Positions 1 to 46,538 of a DNA stretch of 46,538 nucleotides are shown piece by piece (position 1 is the stretch's first letter; each line of letters starts with the position of its first letter). The notes under the pieces are model-generated. The model had not been told where the DNA came from and did no database searches. It saw only the letters and a program-made list of their open reading frames with translations. Source of the DNA: a virus; IMG/VR virus record IMGVR_UViG_3300045988_137997, positions 1 to 46,538 of that record. The stretch is one strand, 5' to 3'. The position numbers and the translations under genes are program-made.

Positions 1-901
1 CTGGTTGAAAGCGGTAGAAGCTCGTGAGCGTGTAGCGGGCTGGAAGAATGATGATCAAGGCGAGCAATGGCGGCAATCGATTCGAGATCATGCCTTACCC
101 CACCTTGCGAATTTGGATGTAGCAGAGATCACCCGCCGAGATGTTTTGGAGGCTCTGTTGCCCATTTGGGAGACTAAGAGCATTACAGCAATGGCCGTGC
201 GTCAAAGGCTCGAAATGATCTTCGACTGGTGCATCCGTGAAGGGCTGCGTGTAAAAGAGAATCCAGCTAGATGGAAGGGAGGCTTAGCCTTCGATCTTCC
301 GTCAAAGAATTACCTTCTAAAGCAGAACCACCATGAAGCTCCGACCTTTGACGAGTTGGTCAATGCCGCCCCTGCATTGATACTAACGGACGGAGGTCGA
401 TGCGCTCTTTTCGGAATCCTGACAGCCGGACGCGTAAGCGAGTTTCTAAAAGCCAAGTGGGAAGAAATCGATTTCGACGAGCGCGTTCTAACTATTCCGC
501 CAGAGCGACGTAAGGACAAAAAACCCTACCCTCATCGTGTCCCGCTTTCGAAGCAGGCGATCAAACTTTTGGAGATGATGCCACGAGATTCGGAATTTAT
601 TTTTAGAGGCCGCCGATCAAAAACATTGAGCTTGGATACCCCCAGAACGGCGCTCCGCTTCGCTGTCTGCAGACCTGTCACCATGCACGGATGCAGATCA
701 ACTTTTCGCGACTGGTGCTCTGAAAACGGCATTGATGAGATCGTGGCCGAAAAGTGTCTGCACGCTACCGGAAATGCCGTTGTGCAAGCCTATCAACGTT
801 CTGATCTCATAGAAAGACGCCGCTATGTAATGCAAAAGTGGGCTAACGCGATTTGCGTGCACTGTGAAGAGCTTCTAGCGCAATCGACTCCATCGCCTTG
901 A
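1..901 (+). CDS. int: Tyrosine integrase, P4/DUF4102 type, C-terminal part (ORF starts at 46176 and continues across the circular junction)
   Basis: In-frame continuation of the 46176..46538 ORF through the 55-bp terminal overlap. Catalytic signature present: R (GRVSEF), HxxR (HGCRSTFRDW), H...Y (LHATGNAVVQAYQRSD). Confidence 0.85.
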   Translation, partial: WLKAVEARERVAGWKNDDQGEQWRQSIRDHALPHLANLDVAEITRRDVLEALLPIWETKSITAMAVRQRLEMIFDWCIREGLRVKENPARWKGGLAFDLPSKNYLLKQNHHEAPTFDELVNAAPALILTDGGRCALFGILTAGRVSEFLKAKWEEIDFDERVLTIPPERRKDKKPYPHRVPLSKQAIKLLEMMPRDSEFIFRGRRSKTLSLDTPRTALRFAVCRPVTMHGCRSTFRDWCSENGIDEIVAEKCLHATGNAVVQAYQRSDLIERRRYVMQKWANAICVHCEELLAQSTPSP

Positions 902-2952: not shown

Positions 2953-4095
2953 ATGACACTCACTACAAAACAAATTCAAGCTTTAAAACCGCGCGAATCG
3001 CGCTACTCAATCGCCGACGGCAACGGTCTGACCCTGCGCGTTCAGCCGTCCGGATCTAAGTCCTGGGTCTTCAGGTCGCACCATTCCGGCCGCATCACAG
3101 ACGAGACCATCGGCCACTGGCCTGAGATGAGCCTCAAGCAAGCCCGGATGATCGTCCGCCGGCGTCGCAAAGATGCAGGCCTTAAGCCGCCATCCGGGTA
3201 CGTGCTCAACGACGCCTTCAGGCTGTGGTGCGGCCTGAAAAAAGGTCGAATCGCTTCGTACAAAGAAGAACGACGTCGCCTCGAAAATCACGTCATCAGA
3301 GCCTTAGGACGCAAGCAAATCGACGAGATCACCGCGCCACTGATCATCAGCCACGTCCTTCCTATCGAGAGAGCCGGCAATCAGGCCACACTCAAAAGAA
3401 TTCTCATGCGTATGCGCGAGATCATGAATCTCGCTGTTTGTGCTGGCTACCTCCAGCACAACCCACTTGAACGCGTTTCGATGGTTTTCGCACCACCTGA
3501 GGTCGAGCCGATGCCGTCCGTGCACTGGTCTCGGATGATCGATGTCTGCCGCTGCTTTCTCGATGCTCCAGTCCGCACGCAGATCCTCTTTTGCTTTTCA
3601 GCGTGTTCGATGCTCAGACCGTCCGAAAACGCAAAGTTGCGTTGGTCCTGGATCGAAAATGACATCCTCACGATTCCTGCCGAAGAGATGAAGAAGCGCA
3701 AGGCCTTCCGTGTGCCACTTACACCCTTCATGCAGCAGATACTGGACGCCGCTAAACGACACTCTCGGCATCCACGATCTGACTATGTTTTTCCCGGGCG
3801 AACATCTGGCACGCACGTCAGCTCGCAATGTCTGGCCAAATACCTCCACACCACCGAGCTTTCCGGCAAGCTTGTCGCACATGGCTTGCGCTCCATGGCC
3901 CGAAGTTTCCTTGCCGATCGGCAAGCCCCCTTCGAAGCCGCCGAAATGTGCCTGTCTCACACCGTTGGCACAAGCGTCTCTCGGGCATATCAAAGAAGCG
4001 ACTACCTGGACGTTCGGCGCGATCTCATGGCCGCATGGAGTGACTATTTTTCAGGTTGTGCCGACAGTGCCGGCTTGAATCTCGATTTTCCATAA
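2953..4095 (+). CDS. Second tyrosine recombinase (P4/DUF4102 type); candidate tail-fibre shufflon invertase
   Basis: Arm-domain motif GLTLRVQPSGSKSWVFR. Catalytic R (MLRPSEN), HxxR (AHGLRSMARSF), H...Y (LSHTVGTSVSRAYQRSD). Lies directly beside the fibre cassettes. Confidence 0.85.
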   Translation: MTLTTKQIQALKPRESRYSIADGNGLTLRVQPSGSKSWVFRSHHSGRITDETIGHWPEMSLKQARMIVRRRRKDAGLKPPSGYVLNDAFRLWCGLKKGRIASYKEERRRLENHVIRALGRKQIDEITAPLIISHVLPIERAGNQATLKRILMRMREIMNLAVCAGYLQHNPLERVSMVFAPPEVEPMPSVHWSRMIDVCRCFLDAPVRTQILFCFSACSMLRPSENAKLRWSWIENDILTIPAEEMKKRKAFRVPLTPFMQQILDAAKRHSRHPRSDYVFPGRTSGTHVSSQCLAKYLHTTELSGKLVAHGLRSMARSFLADRQAPFEAAEMCLSHTVGTSVSRAYQRSDYLDVRRDLMAAWSDYFSGCADSAGLNLDFP

Positions 4096-5422
4096 GCCAC
4101 GGGCTTTTTCTCGCACATGAAGAGCTGCAGCCCTTGTGCCAAGCGCAGGGGCTTCGCACCTCGCTAGAGACTGACTTTCGAGGCGATTTCGACCTCAAAA
4201 AATGACTGCTCGTAACTGGACCTTTAGTCAGCTGTGCGTAGAAACTGGCATCAGCTGCAAACCCCCATTTGAGTCCGTGAAAGACTTCTCCATCAACATA
4301 TGGGTTACGCACATACATGTTGTATTCACGGCGGCCATCGTTTCGTGATGCGAGCTGTATGTATGCAATTCGATCGCCGTTTTCAGCGTAAACGGAATGT
4401 CCGTTAAATCTAGAGACATCGGGAATTGAATCATTCGAATCAACGGTTTGAGTCGATTCGATGACGGGAGCATGCGGGCCAAGCTTCAAATTGGCAGCCA
4501 TGCTGGTGCTGCCGTCCAATGCTAGGAATTTTGAACGGGTCCAAGCCGCTGTCACAGCTTCATCACTTGAGGCCTCTGCCAGTGGCCTGGGAACAAAGAA
4601 GGCCCTGTTTCCATTGGCTTTATATTCAAGAAACGCATGAGCATTGTTTTCGCTACCGCTTACGTTTTCGTACGAAAAAAACTCTAAGCGCGTCGATCCA
4701 TCTGTACCCGTTCGGAGAGTGATAACCCCGAGCCGCTCTTCAATGTCACTATCCCACCATTGAATTTGCCTATGGGAGACGTTTGATTTGTCCCCCTTAC
4801 TCACATAGCAAACTAACCCTAAATCGTTTTTAATGGATTTTTTACCAGTAACGAGTTCATTACCATCCAAGTGAACAACATTATTATCTTGAGCAATCTT
4901 GAACCACTCAGACCACTCACTCCCGTTTTTCACTCGGTAGAAAATGACGTTCGGCGTAGTTTGCTGAACACTCATTTGCCAAGCTACAGGACCGGCAGCA
5001 AATCTTCGATGTACGTGAATCAAAAGACCTGTGTAGTTCTGCGCCTGTTCACCTTTCGGTGAGTTTGCGACGTTGCTAGAGCATGTGTAGAAACCTGTGG
5101 CATCGACGTCATTCAAGTCCCTTGATGGGTAGGCATCAGACACATCTACAGCCGTATTAATACCCCCGGCAAGACCGTAACGACGAATCAACTTCCAGAC
5201 CCAAGAGGCAGGAACGATGTTCGAAGTGTTTACGTAATCTGCGGGCGTTTTGACCGTGCCGCCGCCATTCAAACTGGCTGCTCCAGTTACTTTCAGGCCC
5301 GAACTGAAAGTAACCGGAAAAGCCATAGTTGAGGACATCGCTATCCGCGGCAGTTCAACCGATTTCGCAGGGGATAGAGGGCAAATCGGCGATTGCCAAG
5401 ACGTCAATGACATTGACTTCAA
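4025..5422 (-). CDS. Silent tail-fibre cassette Sv3 (functional part about 4205..5296)
   Basis: Fibre-like sequence begins at the LKVTG site (5283..5296) and stops resembling fibre right after PVTSS (4205..4221). The remaining ORF to 4025 is low-complexity and antisense to the recombinase 3' end. The N-terminal extension to 5422 is antisense to Sv2. Confidence 0.6.
   Translation of the reverse strand: MKSMSLTSWQSPICPLSPAKSVELPRIAMSSTMAFPVTFSSGLKVTGAASLNGGGTVKTPADYVNTSNIVPASWVWKLIRRYGLAGGINTAVDVSDAYPSRDLNDVDATGFYTCSSNVANSPKGEQAQNYTGLLIHVHRRFAAGPVAWQMSVQQTTPNVIFYRVKNGSEWSEWFKIAQDNNVVHLDGNELVTGKKSIKNDLGLVCYVSKGDKSNVSHRQIQWWDSDIEERLGVITLRTGTDGSTRLEFFSYENVSGSENNAHAFLEYKANGNRAFFVPRPLAEASSDEAVTAAWTRSKFLALDGSTSMAANLKLGPHAPVIESTQTVDSNDSIPDVSRFNGHSVYAENGDRIAYIQLASRNDGRREYNMYVRNPYVDGEVFHGLKWGFAADASFYAQLTKGPVTSSHFLRSKSPRKSVSSEVRSPCAWHKGCSSSCARKSPWLMENRDSSRHCRHNLKNSHSMRP
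4205..4221. repeat. PVTSS-coding site, copy M1
   Basis: ACTGCTCGTAACTGGAC is identical over 17 bp to 8532..8548 and inverted relative to 6357..6371. Confidence 0.5.
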
Positions 5423-6728
5423 TGACTACACTCATTCTGGGGTTTGGAAGGTAGGAGGAACCTATCAAAATGCCGGAGCTTTTGGGAATGTCGGTGGTTT
5501 TTTGATCGTCCACAGCAATCGCGCCCATAACTACTTCTTTCAAATCTTCGAGAGAACACTGAATTCTGACCAGCTCCACATCAGAACCTACCACGGTTCT
5601 TCTGGCTGGCAGCCCTGGCGCAAGGTTATCTTGGAAACTGGCGGTGATTTGACGGGCGACCTCTCGACGACCGGCTCTTTCACGTCGTACAACATCCGCG
5701 GCTTTCGGCATCAGTACAGCGGCATTGACCGCGATGTAATTCCATCGTCGCAACAACAAATCTTTCCGTATGCCTTGCTCGATAAAAACGGCAAAACCGT
5801 TTCGATGTACAAGGTCATTCAAAACACCAGTGGAGGCATTGCCACTCAGATCGGCACGGTTCGGTCTGGTGATGACGGTGAGACTGAGTACGCACTGGTT
5901 GAGATTGGTTTCGATAGCGAGGGAGTCGCATACGCAAACGTCCCCAGCACGCCAAATGACGCTAACAACAATCGCGCTGCAACCTCAAAATTTGTCAACG
6001 ATCGGATCAGCGCACACGATGCGACATTGGTTCACACAACGGGATCTGAAACCATCAGCGGGTCAAAAACGTTCGAGAGCCCAGTTGTGAGCAAAGCGGT
6101 TTCGCTGATCCAAAGCACGAATTGGAGCGGGATTCGACTGAATGATACGAGTCGAACTAGTGATTCGACCAAGATGCTTGCTCAAATCCTTGATGCTGAT
6201 GGGAAGCGATGGATTGGGCTGGAAACCACGGCAAGCACTGATGGCAGTCGAACTGTGCAGTTAATTGGCCGCAATCGAGACGATACAGCCTGGCTCAATT
6301 TCATCAAGTTTTGGGAAAGAGCTGATGGAACGTACAACGTTTATTTGGCTCGAAATCCGGTTACGAGCAGTAACGACTCTAGTATCGCAACCACCAAGTG
6401 GGTCAACGATAAGTTGGCTGATTCGTCTATCACCGGCGAGGCAAAACTTGTCGAGACTTGGCACGACGGGGCCTCCTGGTATCGCATCTGGTCTGACGGC
6501 TTCATTGAACAAGGAGGCCAGTTTGAGTACGACACAAAGTTAAAAACCTACCACAAAGCTTACACATCCACCCCGAATGTTCAGATCAGTATGACTTTGA
6601 CAACATGGGGCTTAAATGACGATGGAGGTCTCTTCTTCCAATCGGGTCCTGACAAAAATGGGTTTTCTGTTAGAGGAAACGGGGACGCACTTGCCGGCAC
6701 GGTCTACTGGACCGCTAGAGGCTATTAG
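5250..6728 (+). CDS. Silent tail-fibre cassette Sv2 (functional part 5304..6728)
   Basis: Starts at the inverted LKVTG site. Contains fibre modules shared with Sv1 (NPVTSSNDSSIATTKWV). Ends ...GTVYWTARGY, like fibre 2 (YWMAIGY). Opposite strand to the expressed gene, with no credible own start. Confidence 0.65.
   Translation: MTVPPPFKLAAPVTFRPELKVTGKAIVEDIAIRGSSTDFAGDRGQIGDCQDVNDIDFNDYTHSGVWKVGGTYQNAGAFGNVGGFLIVHSNRAHNYFFQIFERTLNSDQLHIRTYHGSSGWQPWRKVILETGGDLTGDLSTTGSFTSYNIRGFRHQYSGIDRDVIPSSQQQIFPYALLDKNGKTVSMYKVIQNTSGGIATQIGTVRSGDDGETEYALVEIGFDSEGVAYANVPSTPNDANNNRAATSKFVNDRISAHDATLVHTTGSETISGSKTFESPVVSKAVSLIQSTNWSGIRLNDTSRTSDSTKMLAQILDADGKRWIGLETTASTDGSRTVQLIGRNRDDTAWLNFIKFWERADGTYNVYLARNPVTSSNDSSIATTKWVNDKLADSSITGEAKLVETWHDGASWYRIWSDGFIEQGGQFEYDTKLKTYHKAYTSTPNVQISMTLTTWGLNDDGGLFFQSGPDKNGFSVRGNGDALAGTVYWTARGY
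5283..5317. repeat. Head-to-head pair of LKVTG-coding sites (S1 5283..5296, S2 5304..5317)
   Basis: CCAGTTACTTTCAG-gcccgaa-CTGAAAGTAACCGG. S1 is identical to S3 (9643..9656). S2 is its inverted copy with 13/14 identity. Confidence 0.7.
6357..6371. repeat. PVTSS-coding site, copy M2 (inverted)
   Basis: CCGGTTACGAGCAGT is the reverse complement of the M1/M3 core with one mismatch. Confidence 0.45.
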
Positions 6729-6766
6729 CAGCGAAGGCCGCTTATTTGTTGAGCGGCCCCATTCGC

Positions 6767-7339
6767 TTACAAACACTCAGGCTTCTTTGGCCACATAACA
6801 TCAAGTGGGAAACCATCTTGCTGCGGCACATCGCGCAGCGCCTGGCGATAGACCTTTACGGCTTCGCGTTCTCCTTCAGACAGAGGATAGTCCGGCATGA
6901 CAAGATGGTCGGTCTCTGCCAGAAGCGCATCGCGCTGCGCCCGGACCTGTGCCGACGCTTCCGCCTTGACCTCTTCAGGCGTCTTTTCAGGGATCGCCTC
7001 GACGCTCCAGGACAGGTCTTTGCCTCGAGCCAGTCGATGCGTTTTGCTCCCGGCTGTGAGCGCCACAAAGAGCTTCTTCAATGTGTAGTCGTGAGGTGTT
7101 CTTGACTCATGTGCAACCACCATGCCAACGCACTCTTCAGGTGTAGTCGGGATCTTTTCTTCGAGCCACTTCTCGCCATCAAACCGGTAGAAGCAATCTT
7201 CCTTGCACGCCGGCGCAATTGTCGTGCAATTGTCCGGCATTGAAATAATTTCGCGCGTTACGTCATCAACTTGCGCGATAGTCGTTCCTGCGAAATAACC
7301 TTTTGAATCGTATTCATATACGTCAATTAAATTTTCCAT
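6767..7339 (-). CDS. Tail fibre assembly chaperone (Tfa)
   Basis: C-terminal motif DHLVMPDYPLSEGEREAVKVYRQALRDVPQQDGFPLDVMWPKKP is the classic Mu U / P2 G type. ATG at 7339. Confidence 0.8.
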   Translation of the reverse strand: MENLIDVYEYDSKGYFAGTTIAQVDDVTREIISMPDNCTTIAPACKEDCFYRFDGEKWLEEKIPTTPEECVGMVVAHESRTPHDYTLKKLFVALTAGSKTHRLARGKDLSWSVEAIPEKTPEEVKAEASAQVRAQRDALLAETDHLVMPDYPLSEGEREAVKVYRQALRDVPQQDGFPLDVMWPKKPECL

Positions 7340-7360
7340 TTTTAATTCCTTTATCAATAA

Positions 7361-7582
7361 CCGAACATCACTGGAGTTTGGTCTACAACTGGATATTCAA
7401 GAGATTCAATGCTGGCATACGGTGCTATATCTCACGAATATACTGGTCGTAAAAGTTCTGATGGACAAAACAACGTTGCTGGCGAACTAACTTTTGATGC
7501 TTCTCGTTGTAGTTCCGTTTTTGGTAAATCATCCGAAATCCAACCTCCCTCAGGCAAAGCCTTATGGATAATCAAGGTGTAA
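7361..7582 (+). CDS. Silent fibre-tip cassette A (73 aa, no start codon)
   Basis: Begins CCGAACATCAC (PNITG), is preceded by an in-frame TAA, and ends ...FDASRCSSVFGKSSEIQPPSGKALWIIKV*. Confidence 0.7.
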   Translation, partial: PNITGVWSTTGYSRDSMLAYGAISHEYTGRKSSDGQNNVAGELTFDASRCSSVFGKSSEIQPPSGKALWIIKV

Positions 7583-7801
7583 CCGAACATCACGGGTTAT
7601 ATCGGTGGCGGCGGACAGTCTGGCAACACAATTTATGGAGGCGCGTTCTACAACTATGGGCAAAATCAAAATACGGCAGATGACGGAAATTCGACCGTGC
7701 CGGTGATTGGTTTCGACGCAAGTCGTAGTTCTGCTGTGTATGGGGCCTCAGACGTTATTCAGCCTCCTTCTGGAAAAGCTTTATGGATCATCAAAACCTA
7801 A
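7583..7801 (+). CDS. Silent fibre-tip cassette B (72 aa, no start codon)
   Basis: Begins CCGAACATCACGGG directly after the TAA of cassette A. Ends ...FDASRSSAVYGASDVIQPPSGKALWIIKT*. Confidence 0.7.
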   Translation, partial: PNITGYIGGGGQSGNTIYGGAFYNYGQNQNTADDGNSTVPVIGFDASRSSAVYGASDVIQPPSGKALWIIKT

Positions 7802-7804
7802 TTT

Positions 7805-8014
7805 CCGAACATCATAGGCTCGTTCGTGGCTCACTACGGCAACAACCCTGTTTCCGGAGCTTTTTACAAGACCGGTACGGGCCGCTCAAAAAGCGGTACT
7901 GACAATGACGGCCAGGCGATTTCTTTCGATGCCTCATTGTGCAGCTCCGTATACGGTGCCGCAGACGTGATCCAGCCACCAGCCGGAAAGGCCTTGTGGA
8001 TCATCAAACTTTAA
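7805..8014 (+). CDS. Silent fibre-tip cassette C (69 aa)
   Basis: Begins CCGAACATCA (PNIIG) 3 nt after the TAA of cassette B. Ends ...FDASLCSSVYGAADVIQPPAGKALWIIKL*. Overlaps tail-to-tail with the expressed tip. Confidence 0.7.
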   Translation, partial: PNIIGSFVAHYGNNPVSGAFYKTGTGRSKSGTDNDGQAISFDASLCSSVYGAADVIQPPAGKALWIIKL

Positions 8015-10238
8015 TGATCCAAAGTGCTTTGCCTGCCGGTGGTTGGATGATGTCCGAAGAGCCATAGATAGGGTTACACAGAGAGGCATCGAACCCCATC
8101 TGGTAGACATTGGTATTGCCACCATCACCAGCGCCACCATTCTGTGTGTCCATACCGTAATACGCGCCTTCGGTGTTGTATCGATCGCCGTATTTGAACG
8201 CGTGGCCACCGTGTGTACCCGTGATGTTCGGTGCACCACTTTTGAGATAAGTGCCGACCTCTGATGCAGCGTTGGCTCCCATCACTGTGCGATTGCGCCA
8301 GTCAGGCAGTTTGAAGGTCGTGGAGCCATCGCCGGCACCCCAGGCCGTACCGATTGCCGCAAAAAGCTTGGCATACGTAGTGCGGCTGATCGTGCCCCCA
8401 TTGCAGGCCATAAAGCCCGATGGGACAGTCTTGCCCGCATATGGAAAGGCCACCCCAGATGGGATGGCCGAACCGAGACCTGCTTTAAAAAGTGCCCGTA
8501 CCCAGGCAGTCGTCGCAATCGAGTTGTCGTCACTGCTCGTAACTGGACTTTGACTCACCTTAAAGTAAGCGTTGCCGGCATTGTCTTCGGCGATTTGGAG
8601 AAAGTTTATCCAGCCAGAGTTATCCCGCCGTCTAGCAGTAACTTGAAATGTCCGACTTCCTTCGGTATTTGCCGTGCTCTCCAACCCCATGAACCGAAGT
8701 CCATCTTTGTCTATAACTTCGCAAATGGTTCGGTTAGCTGTTTTTGCACGAGAAGTGTCGGCAATGCTGACTCCTTCCCACGGAACGCTCTTTATGAACG
8801 TACTGGATGCGGATAGCAAAGATGAAGTGAATGTCTTGGCACCGTTGATTTTTTCAGCGTTGACAGTGTGAACTAACTGGGACTGCTCGGCATTCCAAAT
8901 ATAGGAACGAAGCCACCTTGTGGTGACAACTTCATAACCGTTCGATGTTTCTGCTGGGGAGTGATTGGCTCGAACATATCGAGTTCCATCTGCCCGATGA
9001 CCTATCTCCAGGCTGCTCCAGTCGCCATCTTCGTTATCAGCGTTGTAAAAATTGATATCGGACAGCACTACAGTGGTCTCACCTGATGCATATTGGAAGT
9101 GCTTGAGAAGCAATCCGCCTTTCCCGTTTTTGTCCCTATATCTGGCAAACCAAGTCTGCGTAGTGGTTTCGGGGACTTTCGTGAAATCTTGGTCTGGGCG
9201 TACCACTTCCAACCCAGTTGACGCATAGACATTGATCGGGCGATAAAATTTTTTCCACCCATTTATTTCTTCGTCACCAGTTAGGTGGACAAAAGCATTG
9301 TTTGCCCACTTGGCCGTGATCAGCGTATGGTCATTCACTGAAGCCGATGGGCTATCGGCAGCAATGATCCGGACTTCCTCGTTCGCGTATTCCTTGATTG
9401 TTAAGAACAGACGCCATGAAGTATTTGCTCGATTTCGACCATTGAAACGCAGGTCTCGGCTGCCGTCCTGGTTAAAGTAGGCTTCTTCAGAGATAAGTGC
9501 AGCACCATCTCTATCCGCAATTCTGTAAACAATGATGTTTTTCGAAGAATCCCGTTCAGTATCAGAAACGCTTACATCAGATCTACTGCCGAAAAGCCAT
9601 TGGTTTGTATTGAATGTGATTCGGTTCCCGTGTGCAGCTTGACCAGTTACTTTCAGTAACCCGCCGATGGTGGCATCACCGTTCGCCTGAAGAGCCTCAA
9701 GAGTGGTCTTGCCGTGGACGACCAAGTTTCCGGAAACATCTCCATTGCCGTTCAGGTCAAGCTCTGTGGCCGTGACTTTCTTGGCCGAAACTGCCTGCAA
9801 AGTGCTCGCGCCATTGACTTTCAGCGTGCCACTGGCCGAAATGTTCGTCGCATTGACGGCGGCCAAAGTGCTCGTTCCGGTCGCCGTGATGCTCGTGACA
9901 TTCAAACCACCTTGCGCATTCAAGGATCCCTTGATGGTGGCAGCTCCGCCCACCACAAAAGTCCCGGACACATCACCATTGCCATTGATGTCGAGATTCG
10001 TGCCAGTGACCTTGCCAAAGCTCACGTCGCCAAAGCGAGTCGCTGCGGTCAACCCCTGATCAACCGACTTCGGCGCGTTGCCGGACCCCGTCCGGATCAG
10101 CTTGCCGGCCACCTGATCAGCCATCAGTTGCTTGTATGCCTGATCCGCAACAGCCACTTTGTCGGACGGCATGGCGTCCGTTGACATAAGTTCGGACGAA
10201 AAAAAAGCGCGTTCGGACGCGCTGTAGTAGTAAGCCAT
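8004..10238 (-). CDS. Tail fibre 3 (expressed isoform: constant N-module + Sv1 + tip D)
   Basis: 744 aa. Contains G-x-L-x-V-x-G repeats, repeated ..SIATTAWV.. fibre modules, and a tail-collar-type domain (FPYAGKTVPSGFMACNGGTISRTTYAKLFAAIGTAWGAGDGSTTFKLPDWRNRT). Good SD. Confidence 0.85.
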   Translation of the reverse strand: MAYYYSASERAFFSSELMSTDAMPSDKVAVADQAYKQLMADQVAGKLIRTGSGNAPKSVDQGLTAATRFGDVSFGKVTGTNLDINGNGDVSGTFVVGGAATIKGSLNAQGGLNVTSITATGTSTLAAVNATNISASGTLKVNGASTLQAVSAKKVTATELDLNGNGDVSGNLVVHGKTTLEALQANGDATIGGLLKVTGQAAHGNRITFNTNQWLFGSRSDVSVSDTERDSSKNIIVYRIADRDGAALISEEAYFNQDGSRDLRFNGRNRANTSWRLFLTIKEYANEEVRIIAADSPSASVNDHTLITAKWANNAFVHLTGDEEINGWKKFYRPINVYASTGLEVVRPDQDFTKVPETTTQTWFARYRDKNGKGGLLLKHFQYASGETTVVLSDINFYNADNEDGDWSSLEIGHRADGTRYVRANHSPAETSNGYEVVTTRWLRSYIWNAEQSQLVHTVNAEKINGAKTFTSSLLSASSTFIKSVPWEGVSIADTSRAKTANRTICEVIDKDGLRFMGLESTANTEGSRTFQVTARRRDNSGWINFLQIAEDNAGNAYFKVSQSPVTSSDDNSIATTAWVRALFKAGLGSAIPSGVAFPYAGKTVPSGFMACNGGTISRTTYAKLFAAIGTAWGAGDGSTTFKLPDWRNRTVMGANAASEVGTYLKSGAPNITGTHGGHAFKYGDRYNTEGAYYGMDTQNGGAGDGGNTNVYQMGFDASLCNPIYGSSDIIQPPAGKALWIIKV
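8221..8235. repeat. PNITG-coding site D in the expressed gene (inverted relative to A/B/C)
   Basis: The reverse complement reads ACCGAACATCACGGG, identical over 15 bp to site B. Confidence 0.7.
8532..8548. repeat. PVTSS-coding site, copy M3
   Basis: 17-bp identity with M1, inside sequence that is otherwise only about two-thirds identical. Confidence 0.5.
9643..9656. repeat. LKVTG-coding site S3 at the constant/variable junction of the expressed fibre
   Basis: CCAGTTACTTTCAG is identical to S1 and in the same codon phase as S1 and S2. Confidence 0.7.
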
Positions 10239-10250
10239 ATCTATACCTCG

Positions 10251-11162
10251 TCAGTAGCCGATTGCCATCCAGTAGCTCGAAACGCCTCCATTGCCGTTGT
10301 GCTTGAAGGCTGCGTTGCCTCGCTTGAGCGTCGACAGCGCGAAAGTCGGCGCAAAGTTCCCTTTAGCCTCTGCGACTGCAAAAACGGCCTTGGTTGGAAA
10401 AGCCACCGGGAAAGCGATCACGCTGTTTCCGTTCGATGCCAGCGTCGCCTGCCCCCACTGCAGAATCAGGCCGTTCGGCAGCTTCTGCATCCCCCAGTCG
10501 CCATGCGCCTTCAAAAAGGCAGCCAGAAGGTTTGCCGGAGTCAAAGCCTTGGTCTGATCCTTGCCGGCCGCCACTTCGGAGGATGTCGCAATGCGGATCA
10601 AGCCGGTGCGCCCGGTCGTAGCTGTGCGAGCCGACAAGGATGCGCAGGTGACGACACGTGTGGCATCCGTGCCCGTGATGGTCTCTTCGTTCGTCGCCAG
10701 CTCGACCACGCCCAGCGTCGACGTCGTCGCCGGCGGGTTCAAAAGGTTGGCGTCACCAAAAATGACTTGGTCGGCACTGAAGTCCGTCACCGCGATGTCG
10801 ATGGCCAGCATCGAAATGGCCATCGCCGACTTTTGCAGAATCGGCGTGTTTTGCGAGTAGACAGCAAAGAGAGTGCCCTTGTCGGTATACAGCCCAACTT
10901 CGTAGACCGTATAGGCGTCATCCGTACTATCCTGCACCGTGCAGTGGATGATATTGTCGGCCACTGCACCGCCGGCGACCGTTGTCAGTCGCTTAAACTC
11001 GGCCTGGAGCTGAGTCTGCTCAGGTGTGGCCGTGTACTGTCCGGTCCCGTATCCGACTTCAGTAATCAAAACAGCATCTGTGCCGGCTTGCGACGCGGCC
11101 ACTACCTCATCGAGGCCGGCCTGCGTGATGATCATTTTGAGTTCGTTTGCAGTATCGGGCAT
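10251..11162 (-). CDS. Tail fibre 2 (P2 H-like collar N-domain, gp53-like C-terminus)
   Basis: N-terminus is paralogous to fibre 1 (IITQAGL...YTVYEVGLYTDKGTLFAVYS). GTD..A.TP fibre repeats. C-terminus LILQWGQ...FPVAFP...YWMAIGY. Confidence 0.8.
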   Translation of the reverse strand: MPDTANELKMIITQAGLDEVVAASQAGTDAVLITEVGYGTGQYTATPEQTQLQAEFKRLTTVAGGAVADNIIHCTVQDSTDDAYTVYEVGLYTDKGTLFAVYSQNTPILQKSAMAISMLAIDIAVTDFSADQVIFGDANLLNPPATTSTLGVVELATNEETITGTDATRVVTCASLSARTATTGRTGLIRIATSSEVAAGKDQTKALTPANLLAAFLKAHGDWGMQKLPNGLILQWGQATLASNGNSVIAFPVAFPTKAVFAVAEAKGNFAPTFALSTLKRGNAAFKHNGNGGVSSYWMAIGY

Positions 11163-11165
11163 CGT

Positions 11166-12302
11166 TTAGTCTCCCAATGGCTGAATCTGAGGGGCTTCAG
11201 ACTCCGAACCACCCTCAAGTTCTTCGACTCGTGCCGACAGCTCGGCAATTGTCTGATTCAAAGCATCGATCACGGTCTTTAAAGTGACCGGCGTCACAAA
11301 CTTGCTTTCCGACGTGCCGACAGAAACCTCTTCAGCACTTGCCGCTCGGTCATCCACAGCCGCCTTCAAATTGGCCGGAGAAACCGCCGTCGTGGCATCT
11401 GTGCCGGCCTTAACCTCGTCAGGTGTAGCCAGGCGCACCGTGCCCGCCTGCTCTTCCGTTGCAGAGGCAAAAGCATTGTCGAAAGCCGCCTTGACAGTGG
11501 ATGGCGTCATCACCTTGGTCGCATCAGTGCCGGCTTTTGCTTCGGCTTCTGTGGCCAGTTCCACAAGGCCTTTTTTGCCGGTTCCGGCCTCAATAGCCAG
11601 AACCGACTTCGGTGTCAGGAACGACGTCGTGGACGAACCACCTGCAGCCACATCGTCGCTGGCGGCCCGGGCATCGACTGCAGCCTTCAAAGCCGCTGGC
11701 GTGACAGCCTTTTCGGCGTCCGTGCCGGTCTTAGCCTCGTCTGCCGTGGCCGTTTTGATCAAGCCGGCACGCGTATCCGTCGCCAGAAGCTTTGCAAGAG
11801 TCGACGGCGTCACAGCGCGCTGCGAGTCAGTGCCGGCAAGCGTCTCGGCTTTCGTGGCCAATTCACAGATACCGGCGTTCTCAGTAGTGGCCGCAGCAAA
11901 GCTGTACGTCATGCCCTCAAACGTGATCGATGCCGAGTCAATCCCGTCAAACTTGATGTCTACCGACAGCAGAGCCTGCGACGTCGAGACCTTCTGCAAG
12001 ATCACCGACTGCTGAGAAGTCACCGCAAAGAGCGTGCCGTCAGCCAGATACAGACCGAACTCGTAGACCGCGTAGGAATCTTCGGAGTCGTCTCGAATCG
12101 CCACATGGATGGTGTTGTCTCCGGTGTCCCCACCCTCAATCACATCGATCTGCTTGAACTCGTTCTGCAAAGCGGTCTGAGTCTTGCTTGGCGTGTAGCG
12201 TCCGGATCCCAGTCCGATCTTTGTGATCTGGACAGCGGCCGTCCCAGTGGCCCCGGCGTTGACAATCGCCGCCAGGCCTGCATTCGTAATGATGATTTCC
12301 AT
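11166..12302 (-). CDS. Tail fibre 1 (P2 H-like collar N-domain with tandem fibre repeats)
   Basis: MEIIITNAGL...YAVYEFGLYLADGTLFAV, followed by at least 4 repeats of A..A.AGTD...A.TP..LKAAVD. Confidence 0.8.
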   Translation of the reverse strand: MEIIITNAGLAAIVNAGATGTAAVQITKIGLGSGRYTPSKTQTALQNEFKQIDVIEGGDTGDNTIHVAIRDDSEDSYAVYEFGLYLADGTLFAVTSQQSVILQKVSTSQALLSVDIKFDGIDSASITFEGMTYSFAAATTENAGICELATKAETLAGTDSQRAVTPSTLAKLLATDTRAGLIKTATADEAKTGTDAEKAVTPAALKAAVDARAASDDVAAGGSSTTSFLTPKSVLAIEAGTGKKGLVELATEAEAKAGTDATKVMTPSTVKAAFDNAFASATEEQAGTVRLATPDEVKAGTDATTAVSPANLKAAVDDRAASAEEVSVGTSESKFVTPVTLKTVIDALNQTIAELSARVEELEGGSESEAPQIQPLGD

Positions 12303-12311
12303 AGAAAGCCT

Positions 12312-12980
12312 TTAAGAAGCTGTTGCCACAAGGCAGCGCGACACAATGGCTCGCGCACCAGCGGCAAGACCGATGACTCCATCGGCATCAAGAGAAGTGA
12401 TGGATTCGGAACGGATCCGGGCGAAAGCGACAGGGCGAAGATAGGCACACATGCCCATGCCTCCGCCGACCTGCTGCTGGATCACAAAGGTGTAGTGGCT
12501 ACGCACAGGCTTGGCGTCATCGATGAGACGGATCAAGTCTTCCTGCATCTCAGCGTCAAGCACGCCCTCGATCTTCCCGAGCGTCGCATAGATCGTGAAA
12601 GTGTGCGGTGTCCCCTTCGGATCCGTCTCCCACCATTCCTTGATGGTTGCCGCCGACTGGATGGAAGCCAGCGCGTCGCGCACTGCCCTGACCGTCCCTT
12701 TTTTGCGCTTTTCCGTGACCACATTCTTGACCACCGAGCGTTTGAGCTCGATCGGCCAAGAGTCACGCCAGACCGACGCATCCCAGGCGTAAGCAAGATG
12801 GTCGAGCTGCTCGCTCGAAAGCCCGTCGATGCTCACGTAGATGCTCGGAAGATCCAGCGCTGCCGTCACCTCTTGAAGCAAAGGATCAAGCGCCTTGCCT
12901 GCGCTACTTACCGACTTGTCCCGTTTGATGGAGTCAGGAACAAGGTCAAGCAGAGAGGTTTGATCGAGTGTTTTACTCAT
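12312..12980 (-). CDS. Baseplate/tail protein I (P2 gpI-like)
   Basis: ATG at 12980. Motifs SLLDLVP...LDHLAYAWDASVWRDSWPIELKR..V......KKGT. Confidence 0.7.
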   Translation of the reverse strand: MSKTLDQTSLLDLVPDSIKRDKSVSSAGKALDPLLQEVTAALDLPSIYVSIDGLSSEQLDHLAYAWDASVWRDSWPIELKRSVVKNVVTEKRKKGTVRAVRDALASIQSAATIKEWWETDPKGTPHTFTIYATLGKIEGVLDAEMQEDLIRLIDDAKPVRSHYTFVIQQQVGGGMGMCAYLRPVAFARIRSESITSLDADGVIGLAAGARAIVSRCLVATAS

Positions 12981-46119: not shown

Positions 46120-46177
46120 TTGATACCATACAGCGGTATCAAAAATGGTATCCATGCAAAATCTAGGTGGTATCAAT
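46120..46177. repeat. Arm-type site candidates (P' arm): four GGTATC(A/C) copies
   Basis: TTGATACC (inverted, 46120..46127), GGTATCAAAAAT (46135..46146), GGTATCC (46147..46153), and GGTATCAAT overlapping the int ATG (46169..46177). Confidence 0.5.
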
Positions 46178-46538
46178 GGCCGGAACAAGCAAAAAGTTGA
46201 CACAGGCGGACGTGCGAAAACTCCCTGACGGAAATCACAATTTCGGGGGCGGTTTGTACCTTCGCGTGCGAGGAAGCTCGCGCACGTGGTCGGTTCGAAT
46301 TCAGGTGGAATCAAAACGGACTTTCCGAGGTTTGGGCAATGCGTTCGCAATTACCTTGAGTCAAGCCCGTATCGAATGCGAAAGGCAGAAGTCGGCGATG
46401 CGCTCTGGCGACCTCCAGACAAAGGCCGAGAAGGCTCGAGAAGAACGCAGAAAAAACTTACCCAAGACGACCTTTAAGTCTGTCTGGTTGAAAGCGGTAG
46501 AAGCTCGTGAGCGTGTAGCGGGCTGGAAGAATGATGAT
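46176..46538 (+). CDS. int: Tyrosine integrase, N-terminal arm-binding part (continues at position 56 after the overlap)
   Basis: My own translation: MAGTSKKLTQADVRKLPDGNHNFGGGLYLRVRGSSRTWSVRIQ... (DUF4102-type). It runs off the window end in frame with 5..901. Confidence 0.85.
   Translation, partial: MAGTSKKLTQADVRKLPDGNHNFGGGLYLRVRGSSRTWSVRIQVESKRTFRGLGNAFAITLSQARIECERQKSAMRSGDLQTKAEKAREERRKNLPKTTFKSVWLKAVEARERVAGWKNDD
46484..46538. repeat. 55-bp terminal overlap identical to positions 1..55 (circular-assembly signature)
   Basis: Exact identity checked base by base. The overlap lies inside the integrase ORF and preserves its frame. Confidence 0.9.

Follow-up and report, generated by a model that had tools for sequence, protein, structure and literature searches.

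The window considered here is the whole of a 46,538-nt stretch of viral DNA (IMGVR_UViG_3300045988_137997, positions 1 to 46,538); the contig is circular, with a 55-nt terminal overlap, and comes from a temperate P2-like myophage of Duodenibacillus, a human-gut betaproteobacterium. P0001 is identical to the product of its expressed tail-fibre gene (Table 1), for which 321 homologues were found. The Pfam Collar domain (PF07484) occupies residues 597-652 of the fibre, the constant part ends in ...YLKSGA, and the 10-nt core CCG AAC ATC A comes next; the protein closes with GAPNITGTHG...GKALWIIKV-stop, of which the tip makes up 75 aa. The structure PDB 8hqz_d aligns with this region as one domain, from GDGSTTF through APNITG to ...WVIR, in agreement with the proposal of a preliminary description that the tip would be the distal half of a collar-type domain.

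Beyond the tip lie three silent cassettes, A, B, and C. Each begins with the codons CCG AAC ATC (P-N-I), none has a start codon, each has its own stop codon, and at the core the reading frame of all three matches that of the fibre. They share the ending ...FDAS..(Y/F)G....IQPP(A/S)GKALWIIK(V/T/L)-stop, with C-terminal ends that are 69-79% identical (67-76% over the last ~67 nt of DNA) and interiors that are only 20-37% identical. The cassettes had been reported as stop-flanked, start-less plus-strand fragments with a conserved core, conserved ends, and diverged interiors, and both this pattern and the coordinates of all three were confirmed. A 15-mer described as lying inverted in the fibre gene is indeed identical to site B, but its position is four bases away from the 8221-8235 originally given (Table 1).

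Cassette C and tip D meet tail to tail, their 3' ends sharing 11 nt (8004-8014), and by coordinates the same 11-nt overlap is present in 10 relatives with an uninterrupted junction. At the other end of the array, the ribosome-binding site and start codon of the tail-fibre assembly gene tfa lie on the opposite strand, just outside cassette A. The tfa start is most likely the ATG at 7339, 22 nt outside site A, and the gene would therefore stay in place upon inversion, as had been suggested. No promoter-like or terminator-like sites were seen in 6600-8400, and tfa is probably co-transcribed through the silent cassettes.

Table 1. Features of the tail-fibre locus, in window coordinates
Feature	Position	Strand	Remarks
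Candidate shufflon recombinase rec380, 380 aa	2953..4095	+	Pfam Arm-DNA-bind_3, Phage_int_M, Phage_integrase
Silent middle module M3, direct orientation	4205..5296	-	ORF 4025..5422
Silent middle module M2 (5304-6371) and collar-less alternative C-terminal domain (6372-6728)	5304..6728	+	ORF 5250..6728
Tail-fibre assembly chaperone tfa	6767..7339	-	Pfam Phage_tail_APC, 1e-23; 190-aa orthologue in L007
Silent cassette A, 73 aa and stop	7361..7582	+	Core 7361-7370; directly after TAA
Silent cassette B, 72 aa and stop	7583..7801	+	Core 7583-7592; directly after TAA
Silent cassette C, 69 aa and stop	7805..8014	+	Core 7805-7814; after TAA plus one TTT codon
Expressed tail-fibre gene, 744 aa	8004..10238	-	ORF; constant N-terminus, middle module M1, collar domain, tip D
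Expressed tip D, 75 codons and stop	8004..8231	-	Core to fibre gene end; D-type expressed and silent among relatives
S3 crossover core CCGAACATCA in fibre gene	8222..8231	-	Codons P-N-I of GAPNITG; 15-mer identical to site B at 8217-8231
S2 core GTTACGAGCAGT in fibre gene	8532..8543	-	Codons PVTSS; middle module/collar boundary
S1 core CTGAAAGTAAC in fibre gene	9646..9656	-	Codons LKVTG; constant N-terminus/middle module boundary

The S3 core CCGAACATCA occurs exactly four times in the 46.5-kb window, three times on the plus strand and once on the minus strand, always at the predicted sites; 0.10 copies would be expected by chance, and none of 100 dinucleotide-preserving shuffles reached four. 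Its extended form is CCGAACATCA(Y)NGG, and the left flank is unconserved. For comparison, 24 related metagenome loci were used, providing 369 kb of related sequence and 21 arrays. All 27 distinct cassette sequences from 12 loci have CCG AAC ATC as their first three codons, whereas the peptide GKALWIIK, which is as conserved as the core peptide, is spelled with two to five different codons per position. Because the synonymous sites of the core are invariant where those of GKALWIIK vary, it follows that selection maintains the core as DNA.

Within the 369 kb there are 78 matches to the core, and 73 of them head intact cassettes of 60-80 aa; the other five are either cut by contig ends (three) or unrelated (two), and decayed cassettes number 0 of 78. 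Relatives carrying the fragments without conserved core sites would have spoken against the preliminary description, and none was found, the core being invariant in the 73 intact cassettes. Altogether, 32 distinct site contexts could be distinguished: the same cassette body stands behind up to three different left flanks (the fibre, the end of another cassette, or the tfa boundary), and conversely a single left flank stands ahead of several different bodies. Positions +10 to +14 stay with the cassette body when its left flank changes, and the exchange therefore lies within the 10-nt core. For the core site of a tyrosine recombinase, a conserved stretch of 10-14 nt is short, and this is a point against the shufflon explanation.

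Comparison of relatives shows that exchanges do occur at the core. Two loci from different samples, L009 and L010, are 100% identical over the 12,013 nt upstream of their arrays and contain the same five cassettes in the orders B+ C+ Y- D- Q- and Q+ B+ C+ Y- D-, that is, two inversions apart. The arrays themselves are 100% identical but permuted, with an 871-nt block shifted and a 231-nt block inverted; all the breakpoints fall inside the 15-nt core, and where aligned blocks meet at the cores, 15-16 nt are common to both. Since the arrangement differs despite 100% identity over 12 kb, the rearrangement is recent relative to point mutation, and given the different sample origins the difference is one between samples, not within one population. 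Two other pairs, L004/L005 and L020/L021, are two inversions and one inversion apart, respectively.

Every one of the 21 arrays consists of a run of plus cassettes followed by a run of minus cassettes, a form that inversions at the 5' sites preserve, and where coordinates were checked there is one tail-to-tail junction per array. Silent cassettes are present in both direct and inverted orientation, and multi-site inversion is the sole process yielding such a mix. Tips B, C, D, L, Q, W, and Y are each expressed in some relatives and silent in others: L009, for example, expresses DNA identical to cassette B as its tip, L010 and L011 have that DNA as a silent cassette in direct orientation, and a C-type tip is expressed in L019 and L022. 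An exchange of the last 69-75 aa in frame by inversion, as originally predicted, is thus supported for B, C, and D. Cassette A is found in identical form in L007 and as an A-type cassette in L019, always in the tfa-adjacent slot, and it was not seen in the expressed slot among the relatives examined.

Fibre clusters at 90% identity include up to five tip types each. The "four tips in a single fibre" of the preliminary description is true of the window contig, but relatives have two to five cassettes. Locus L007, which is otherwise 100% identical to the window and shares its D+ ... C- B- A- order, has five, the additional one being Y, and contains a 100-N scaffold gap. Where Y is missing from the window, the breakpoint is an 8-nt identity in the 3' ends, and this loss is one homology-driven event. 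Five of the 12 contigs retrieved through a fibre protein end inside the locus.

We consider it very probable, on this comparison of sequences, that the locus is a shufflon (multiple-inversion system) that changes the receptor-binding tip of the myophage tail fibre, most likely by swapping three spare tips into the expressed gene through DNA inversion at the 10-base site. The window's own array could be fixed, for the time being or for good. A shufflon as defined by Komano has at least three short specific repeats in both orientations, several arrangements of the same DNA through inversion of segments alone or in groups, alternative C-termini on a constant N-terminus, and a dedicated neighbouring recombinase that carries out the inversions, a part for which rec380 is the candidate; here there are four copies of CCGAACATCA, the pairs of relatives named earlier differ in arrangement, and the cassettes are in frame with their own stops. 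If the fibre core recombined with the core of an inverted cassette in a conservative, site-specific manner, the intervening DNA would be flipped, which would fuse a new tip in frame and park the old one as a silent cassette. Inversions between distant sites would leave some cassettes in direct orientation, which further inversions could reach, and tfa, outside the array, would serve whichever tip is expressed.

The tip array is, with strong support from comparison of relatives, the innermost of three tiers, in which S1 and S2 bracket the middle module and exchange it with two silent modules. The S2 site of the fibre has partners at 6360-6371 (+) and 4205-4216 (-), giving three matches in the window versus 0.18 expected, and the S1 site has partners at 5304-5314 (+) and 5286-5296 (-), placed head to head with a 7-nt spacer (three matches versus 0.40 expected; class consensus CTGAAAGTMAC). 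Among relatives, the same module bodies are found behind three left contexts, and an S2 crossover also separates the isogenic L009 and L010. Protein P0013 (from L001) combines the N-terminus with M2, the collar, and tip D; M3-like modules are expressed in P0032 and P0034 with the same S1 and S2 borders, and P0193 has M1 in the silent slot of M3. Past its S2 site, M3 continues as a non-fibre tail, and this tail and the end of the recombinase gene overlap.

That gene, rec380, most likely encodes the invertase, a candidacy based on its position, its co-occurrence with the array, and the finding of no alternative enzyme. Wherever the flank of a relative is long enough, the gene is found next to the locus, at 96-100% identity, and in L013 and L014, both of which are without cassettes and modules, it is cut to aa 1-71; this position, conservation, and stub make it the likely invertase. 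The arm domain is of the P4/CP4-57 type (Arm-DNA-bind_3, 1e-15; PDB 3jtz, 1.6e-8), and motif inspection found all of the catalytic residues (R222, H310, R313, H336, and Y346). By family rec380 is an integrase, with ~31% identity to phage integrases, and its distance to the nearest tip core is ~3.3 kb. A second tyrosine recombinase, a 402-aa integrase encoded across the ends of the circular contig, is 27% identical to it. No serine invertase was detected by tblastn of the whole window with Hin and Gin queries, which gave only noise at E values of 5 and above; no Resolvase domain came up among the ~30 ORFs scanned against Pfam, and about 20 further ORFs contained no other recombinase or reverse transcriptase. 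When rec380 was compared by tblastn with 72,556 plasmids (a set without R64), 503 integrase-like records were returned; none of the 40 matches listed of these 503 was annotated as Rci or shufflon, and one checked group of E. coli plasmid matches was an IncF integrase fragment.

It is unlikely that the inversions are real and site-specific but are performed by the 402-aa integrase or by a host recombinase in trans, with rec380 serving, for example, only the S1 and S2 tiers or integration at a second site. In favor of this reading, rec380 is by family an ordinary P4-type integrase, the S3 core is unlike S1 and S2, L020 and L021 are one inversion apart with rec380 decayed in both, and trans-acting invertases are found in the literature, e.g., Mpi (as cited in PMC6109161). 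What favors rec380 is its conserved place beside the array and its reduction to a stub exactly where cassettes and modules were lost, together with the finding of no further recombinase in the phage ORFs scanned, whereas the terminal integrase is variable and is not at this end in L003, L006, and L010. One might also suppose that the cassettes are fossils of past recombination and that the arrangement is now static in the phage, as the common order in the window and L007 and the frozen arrays with decayed recombinase in L020 and L021 would allow. We regard this as very improbable, with rec380 intact in the window, all catalytic motifs included, no cassette decayed in 369 kb, and arrangements differing between genomes that are identical over 12 kb.

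Exchange of cassettes by general homologous recombination or by gene conversion at their conserved ends, similar to pilE/pilS and requiring no dedicated system, could make use of the ~67-nt 3' ends, and the loss of Y relative to L007 has its breakpoint in just such an identity. As an explanation of the switching it is very improbable indeed: the exchanges involve inversion, are reciprocal, and conserve the DNA, since all five cassettes are still there afterwards; the breakpoints lie in a 10-15-nt core that is too short for efficient RecA recombination, while the longer 3' homologies are unused for switching; and invariant synonymous core sites are no requirement of gene conversion. It is scarcely credible that the arrangements are chimeric paths from assemblers misled by repeats, even if a number of contigs are broken within the locus and the scaffold gap of L007 lies there. 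The exact repeats are only 10-15 nt, far below the assembly k-mers to which the k141 contig names and the 55-nt terminal overlap point, so reads must span every junction, and each junction type recurs across independent samples and assemblers. At worst, a path might mix junctions of co-existing isomers, and this would in turn imply switching.

A shufflon at this locus has known relatives in kind, namely the Rin, R64, Min, and BV01-like shufflons. With no serine invertase in the window and a tyrosine recombinase as the candidate, the nearest analogues are Rin and R64. The Rin shufflon of Bifidobacterium (and Eggerthella) prophages (Mavrich et al. 2018, PMC6109161; PMC8778435) is likewise phage-encoded and has several small tandem cassettes that are alternative C-termini of a receptor-binding protein, a short asymmetric repeat (the 11-bp rix) heading each cassette on its 5' side, a tyrosine recombinase beside the array and distinct from the phage integrase, and arrangements that vary among related prophages. 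By its published description (PMC6109161), however, Rin is XerD-like without an arm-type domain, and it abuts its cassettes, whereas here tfa and two silent fibre modules intervene. The rix sequence, TTCCCTAACCC, is unrelated to the S3 core; Rin acts on a TP901-1-like receptor-binding protein of siphophages of an actinobacterium, not on a collar-domain fibre of a P2-like myophage; and no internal-module tiers are described for it. Because of the arm domain of rec380 and the unrelated core, we conclude that the locus operates in the manner of Rin without belonging to the Rin family.

The R64/IncI shufflon (Rci, sfx, pilV; Komano 1999, as cited in PMC13418256) also combines multiple inversion with an adjacent tyrosine recombinase; its sites are short and asymmetric with one side conserved, its segments invert singly or grouped with silent segments in both orientations, and it places alternative C-termini on the constant N-terminus of an adhesin that reads surface polysaccharide. 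Its target is a conjugative-pilus adhesin instead of a phage fibre, and it has one site class that changes C-termini only, whereas middle modules are involved here as well. The 19-bp sfx site, which has a core of 7 bp and is conserved in its right arm, is unlike CCGAACATCA(Y)NGG.

The preliminary description had likened the locus to the R64 shufflon, one of the two nearest analogues, and also to the Mu G, P1 C, and p15B Min systems, which are alike in function only. The invertases Gin, Cin, Pin, and Min are serine recombinases that use 26-bp sites and a Fis-dependent enhancer. Their systems (Mu G, P1 C, e14 P, and p15B Min) share with this locus a constant N-terminus, C-termini selected by inversion, and a switch of host range, and three or more isoforms are produced both by Min and by the gin shufflon of the FRphi phage (PMC13418256). 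The finding of no serine recombinase in the window rules against a Gin/Cin/Min-type system. The core conserved here measures 10-14 nt. The variable part of those systems is a whole C-terminal domain, usually with its own tfa, compared with ~70 aa and a single fixed tfa.

Phocaeicola vulgatus phages of the BV01-like group have a tail-fibre shufflon for which all configurations were detected in reads (preprint PMC13596623). It too belongs to a temperate gut phage, and its array of several cassettes, with directional 10-bp motifs and a flanking recombinase, occupies the distal end of a tail-fibre gene. It differs in its host phylum and motif (TGGGAGAACT) and in that its three cassettes lack homology to one another and, through different stop positions, yield six variants of unequal length, where the cassettes described here are homologous, equal-sized parts of one domain. 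A diversity-generating retroelement was also considered and rejected, there being no reverse transcriptase among the ORFs scanned and discrete cassettes in place of adenine-specific substitutions.

It is possible, at a little short of an even chance, that the three tiers form one hierarchical fibre shufflon driven by a single integrase-family tyrosine recombinase that retains its arm domain, with mutually incompatible S1, S2, and S3 sites; the three classes differ in sequence, which makes a single enzyme for all of them conjectural. If so, inversions would take place within one class only, and paired S1 and S2 inversions would replace an internal shaft module of ~370 aa while keeping the frame, much as heterospecific sites are used in recombinase-mediated cassette exchange, of which this would be a natural counterpart. 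S3 would then permute the last ~70 aa, and three middle modules, four tips, and the collar-less C-terminus would provide ~15 isoforms from ~6 kb. The locus would be a host-range switch of an already known kind in an unusually elaborate form, and its effect would presumably be population-level variation in host or receptor specificity.

The gap between the stop codon of the fibre gene and tfa is filled by three silent cassettes, A, B and C, which face the inverted copy of the tip crossover core (S3, a 10-nt site) in the expressed fibre. Each cassette is preceded by a stop codon (followed, for C, by one TTT) and ends in ...FDAS...IQPP(A/S)GKALWIIKx-stop; with no start codon and with stops on both sides, the cassettes are silent. 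Their cores are in frame with that of the fibre. The coordinates and motifs that the preliminary description gave for this arrangement held up, save that the 15-mer shared with site B lies four bases to the left of where it had been placed. The window has four copies of the S3 10-mer, all of them at these sites, against an expectation of 0.10, and 0/100 shuffles give four copies. Between cassette proteins, identity is 20-37% in the interiors and 69-79% over the last 29 residues.

Because of the tail-to-tail layout, the expressed tip can base-pair at its 3' end, within the minus-strand transcript, with antisense sequence from the convergent silent cassette. The 189-nt hairpin so formed (7915-8103; dG -88 kcal/mol, z -7.8) lies between the fibre stop codon and tfa and might lead to attenuation or stabilisation of the transcript. 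Two further fibre-like genes are found immediately upstream of the shufflon fibre, so the phage has three fibre-type proteins, one alone being variable.

Features of the fibre locus and the recombinase genes of the window
Feature	Position	Strand	Remarks
Fibre gene	8004-10238	-	744 aa; Pfam Collar at aa 597-652
tfa chaperone gene	6767-7339	-	Phage_tail_APC
Silent cassette A	7361-7582	+	starts CCG AAC ATC; no start codon
Silent cassette B	7583-7801	+	starts CCG AAC ATC; no start codon
Silent cassette C	7805-8014	+	starts CCG AAC ATC; no start codon
Inverted S3 core in fibre	8222-8231	-	15-mer common with site B, 8217-8231
S1 sites	9646-9656; 5304-5314; 5286-5296	-; +; -	
S2 sites	8532-8543; 6360-6371; 4205-4216	-; +; -	
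Silent module M2	5304-6371	+	followed by alternative collar-less C-terminus
Silent module M3	4205-5296	-	
Collar-less C-terminal domain after the S2 site of M2	6372-6728		complete; ...ADSSITGEAKLVETWHDG...TARGY-stop; converges on tfa
Fibre-like gene	within 10251-12302		303 aa; Phage_tail_fib N-terminus, gp53-like C-terminus
Fibre-like gene	within 10251-12302		378 aa; Phage_tail_fib N-terminus
rec380	2953-4095		380 aa; arm-type DNA-binding (P4/CP4-57 kind), central and catalytic domains
Canonical integrase	46176-46538 joined to 56-901		402 aa; spans contig ends

Related metagenome loci were collected as 12 contigs reached through fibre proteins and 10 through a DNA pattern of the tfa boundary plus the core. 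The first three codons, CCG AAC ATC, are the same in 27/27 distinct cassette sequences; PPAGKALWIIK, an equally conserved peptide, is written with two to five codons at most positions. Judged by this codon choice, the S3 core is kept at the DNA level. Across 32 distinct site contexts, the same cassette body can be found behind the constant part of the fibre, behind the end of another cassette or at the tfa boundary, and several bodies follow one same left flank. Bases +10 to +14 always move with the cassette body, and the crossover, as read from these contexts, maps to the S3 core.

The clearest comparison is between two loci from two samples of a single submission, L009 and L010, which are 100.000% identical across 12,013 nt upstream. 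Here A, B and C denote the silent tip types of the window, D its expressed tip, and Y, Q, L and W the tip types of relatives. The array reads B+ C+ Y- D- Q- in L009 and Q+ B+ C+ Y- D- in L010 and L011; the five cassettes are the same at 100% identity, the aligned blocks of L009 and L010 have 15-16 nt in common, precisely at the cores, and two inversions interconvert the two arrays. Two inversions likewise separate L004 (L+ Y- W-) from L005 (W+ L+ Y-), and one separates L020 (W+ L-) from L021 (L+ W-). Conservative, reciprocal exchange at the core is shown among these near-identical genomes by the arrangement of their sequences, and such permuted arrays of relatives support the in-frame tip exchange by inversion that had been proposed for the window, where it is probable.

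Inversions between a + site and a - site always yield arrays in which all + cassettes come first and all - cassettes after them, meeting at a single tail-to-tail junction, and 21/21 arrays have this form. As such inversions always preserve the junction, the pair that forms it is inseparable: C and Y lie tail to tail, in either order, in six loci (L001, L006, L007 and L009-L011). The 78 core occurrences in 369 kb comprise 73 intact cassettes of 60-80 aa, three cut by contig ends, two unrelated and none decayed; the cassettes, by this count, are maintained. Up to five tip types occur per fibre cluster (90% identity), and types B, C and D of the window are each seen in the expressed slot of some relative. 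A search for an expressed A-type tip found nothing beyond the ORF of the silent cassette and one 90-aa fragment, 69% identical; this absence says little, because the 90% clustering would mask such a fibre.

One relative, L007, matches the window at 100% identity along 10.9 and 8.0 kb and has one extra cassette, Y, in direct orientation. Tip D ends in ...IIKV in the window, as Y does, and in ...IIKT in L007, and the breakpoint (window 8004-8020, L007 10930-11300) falls at eight identical nucleotides (TGGATCAT) of the conserved 3' ends. The missing Y looks like a recent homology-driven deletion and not a site-specific one.

The system has three tiers, with the tip array innermost. The two outer site classes are S1 (CTGAAAGTAAC, coding LKVTG; three matches against 0.40 expected) and S2 (GTTACGAGCAGT, coding PVTSS; three against 0.18), and together they bracket the middle module of the fibre (M1 in its expressed form) and the two silent modules, M2 and M3. 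Across 24 loci the S1 and S2 cores show the behaviour of S3, in that one module body can follow three different left contexts, and an S2 crossover also separates the isogenic L009 and L010. Homologous fibre proteins carry the expected combinations: P0013 joins the N-terminus to M2, the collar and tip D, M3-like modules are present in P0032 and P0034, and P0193 has M1 in the silent slot beside the recombinase. P0181, P0006 and L008 combine M1 with a collar-less C-terminus, the collar and tips being parked inverted. An in-frame swap of the internal module would need one S1 inversion plus one S2 inversion.

In most relatives the slot after M2 holds merely a 29-aa junk tail, and in L008 it is taken by another collar-less domain, which brings a second tfa of its own. 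At 5275-5325 of the window, two head-to-head S1 sites with a 7-nt spacer (GCCCGAA) form a 51-nt near-palindrome from which the silent modules diverge, and the pair recurs in most related loci that cover the region. Although GTTAC-NNN-CAG is common to the reverse complement of S1 and to S2, a single motif for all three classes found no significant support: S3 and S1 differ at 4/13 informative positions, S3 has no significant similarity to either S1 or S2, and the background at three or fewer mismatches is 32 window matches.

As to the enzyme, the phage encodes two tyrosine recombinases, mutually 27% identical: a canonical integrase and rec380, which lies beside the locus. rec380 is an integrase by family (about 31% identity to phage integrases) and, on motif inspection, has R222, H310-x-x-R313, H336 and Y346. 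It adjoins the fibre modules in all relatives with enough flank, and across relatives it is 96-100% identical, the fibres being 71-92% identical. In L013 and L014, whose fibre is without collar, cassettes and silent modules, rec380 is cut to residues 1-71 (12679-12924 in both). It is also decayed in the two-cassette relatives L020 (4736-5160) and L021 (4341-4580), which are in opposite inversion states despite this. We infer that rec380 catalyses the inversions, because no serine invertase was found in the window, the adjacency is conserved and a stub remains where cassettes and modules are absent; its integrase kinship and the difference between L020 and L021 call for caution in this assignment. 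In the window, the read-through tail of M3 (PVTSS|HFLRSKS..., 4025-4216) runs, on the opposite strand, into the 3' end of the recombinase gene, whose stop codon is only about 110 nt away from the outermost S2 site. Among plasmid matches, one E. coli group, a possible rci, proved to be an IncF integrase fragment.

Other mechanisms are rejected. A serine invertase was not found in the window by tblastn with Hin and Gin queries, and Pfam scans of about 30 ORFs gave neither a Resolvase domain nor a reverse transcriptase; the lack of the latter in the scanned ORFs speaks against a DGR. Gene conversion is rejected because the exchanges are reciprocal and inverted with breakpoints at the core, and so is an assembly artefact, since no exact repeat comes near the k-mer lengths used in assembly. 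Five of the 12 protein-anchored contigs terminate within the locus; such ends are the usual mark of a mixed population and are only suggestive of one here.

Phage fibre shufflons are an already known kind of system. Mu G, P1 C and p15B Min are driven by serine invertases, as is the gin shufflon of FRphi (PMC13418256); in prophages of Bifidobacterium and Eggerthella, the Rin shufflon relies on a tyrosine recombinase acting with 11-bp rix sites (PMC6109161, PMC8778435); 10-bp motifs serve the shufflon of a BV01-like Phocaeicola phage (PMC13596623); and the targets of programmed inversion are generally enriched for tail fibres (PMC9881135). The present locus works like Rin and R64, the latter being one of the likenesses first suggested; the likeness to Mu G, P1 C and p15B Min is one of function only. 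A serine recombinase defines the Gin/Min family, and the locus, in which none was found, falls outside it. Rin proper does not fit either, because of the arm domain in the recombinase and a core that bears no relation to rix. What is distinctive is the use of homologous 70-aa sub-domain cassettes with a core in coding sequence, a single fixed tfa, a recombinase of integrase type, and two outer tiers that swap internal modules.

Alignment to an L-shaped tail fibre (PDB 8hqz_d) extends from GDGSTTF via APNITG and FDAS to ...WVIR, which puts the variable 35-45 residues between conserved elements of one domain and agrees with the earlier view of the exchanged segment as the distal, C-terminal half of a collar-type domain. 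This statement is based on the sequence alignment; the last 185 aa, modelled with AlphaFold2 (24-sequence alignment), had a pLDDT of 42.8, too poor to place the variable residues. With no promoter-like or terminator-like site in 6600-8400, tfa would be co-transcribed through the silent cassettes. In the proposed working, rec380 would perform the exchange, tfa would serve every tip, possibly via the conserved C-terminal strand of the tips, and the outcome would be a switch of host range or receptor.

The first 55 nt of the contig (1-55) are repeated at its end (46484-46538), and it is therefore circular, a complete phage genome of 46,483 bp, probably from excised or replicating DNA. Gene content (baseplate J/W/I, gpD, tape measure, lambda-type portal, terminase gpA, CI-like repressor, DnaB-like helicase) marks a temperate P2/Mu-like phage with a contractile tail. 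Related prophages adjoin ribosomal-protein genes, and NCBI lists the exact sequences of these genes under Candidatus Duodenibacillus intestinavium or Duodenibacillus sp.; the host genus, a gut-dwelling member of the Sutterellaceae, is assigned from MAG names alone. Metagenomes of the human gut often contain this family, with 553 member sequences in the recombinase cluster alone. Human gut metagenome is the label of several related contigs, and the fibre has 321 homologues among metagenome proteins. Megablast of 6700-10300 found no match among 50,697 phage records, a search with the fibre found no relative in GTDB representative genomes, and an IMG/VR scan for the fibre-core junction gave just one 1.4-kb stub. 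The searchable literature held no account of this phage family or of any tiered fibre shufflon.

Phage host choice is decided by tail-fibre tips. The locus would pre-store host-range variants in a fine-grained manner, each cassette encoding a 70-aa half of one collar-type domain and starting with the 10-nt site. Such fibres tolerate module swaps at the conserved seams PNITG, PVTSS and LKVTG, which can help in engineering receptor-binding proteins. If rec380 is the invertase, an integrase-type enzyme complete with its arm domain acts on minimal sites, which bears on how tyrosine recombinases control inversion versus deletion. At such loci assemblies break, or freeze one isomer arbitrarily, so that fibre 'alleles' in gut catalogues can be states of one genome.
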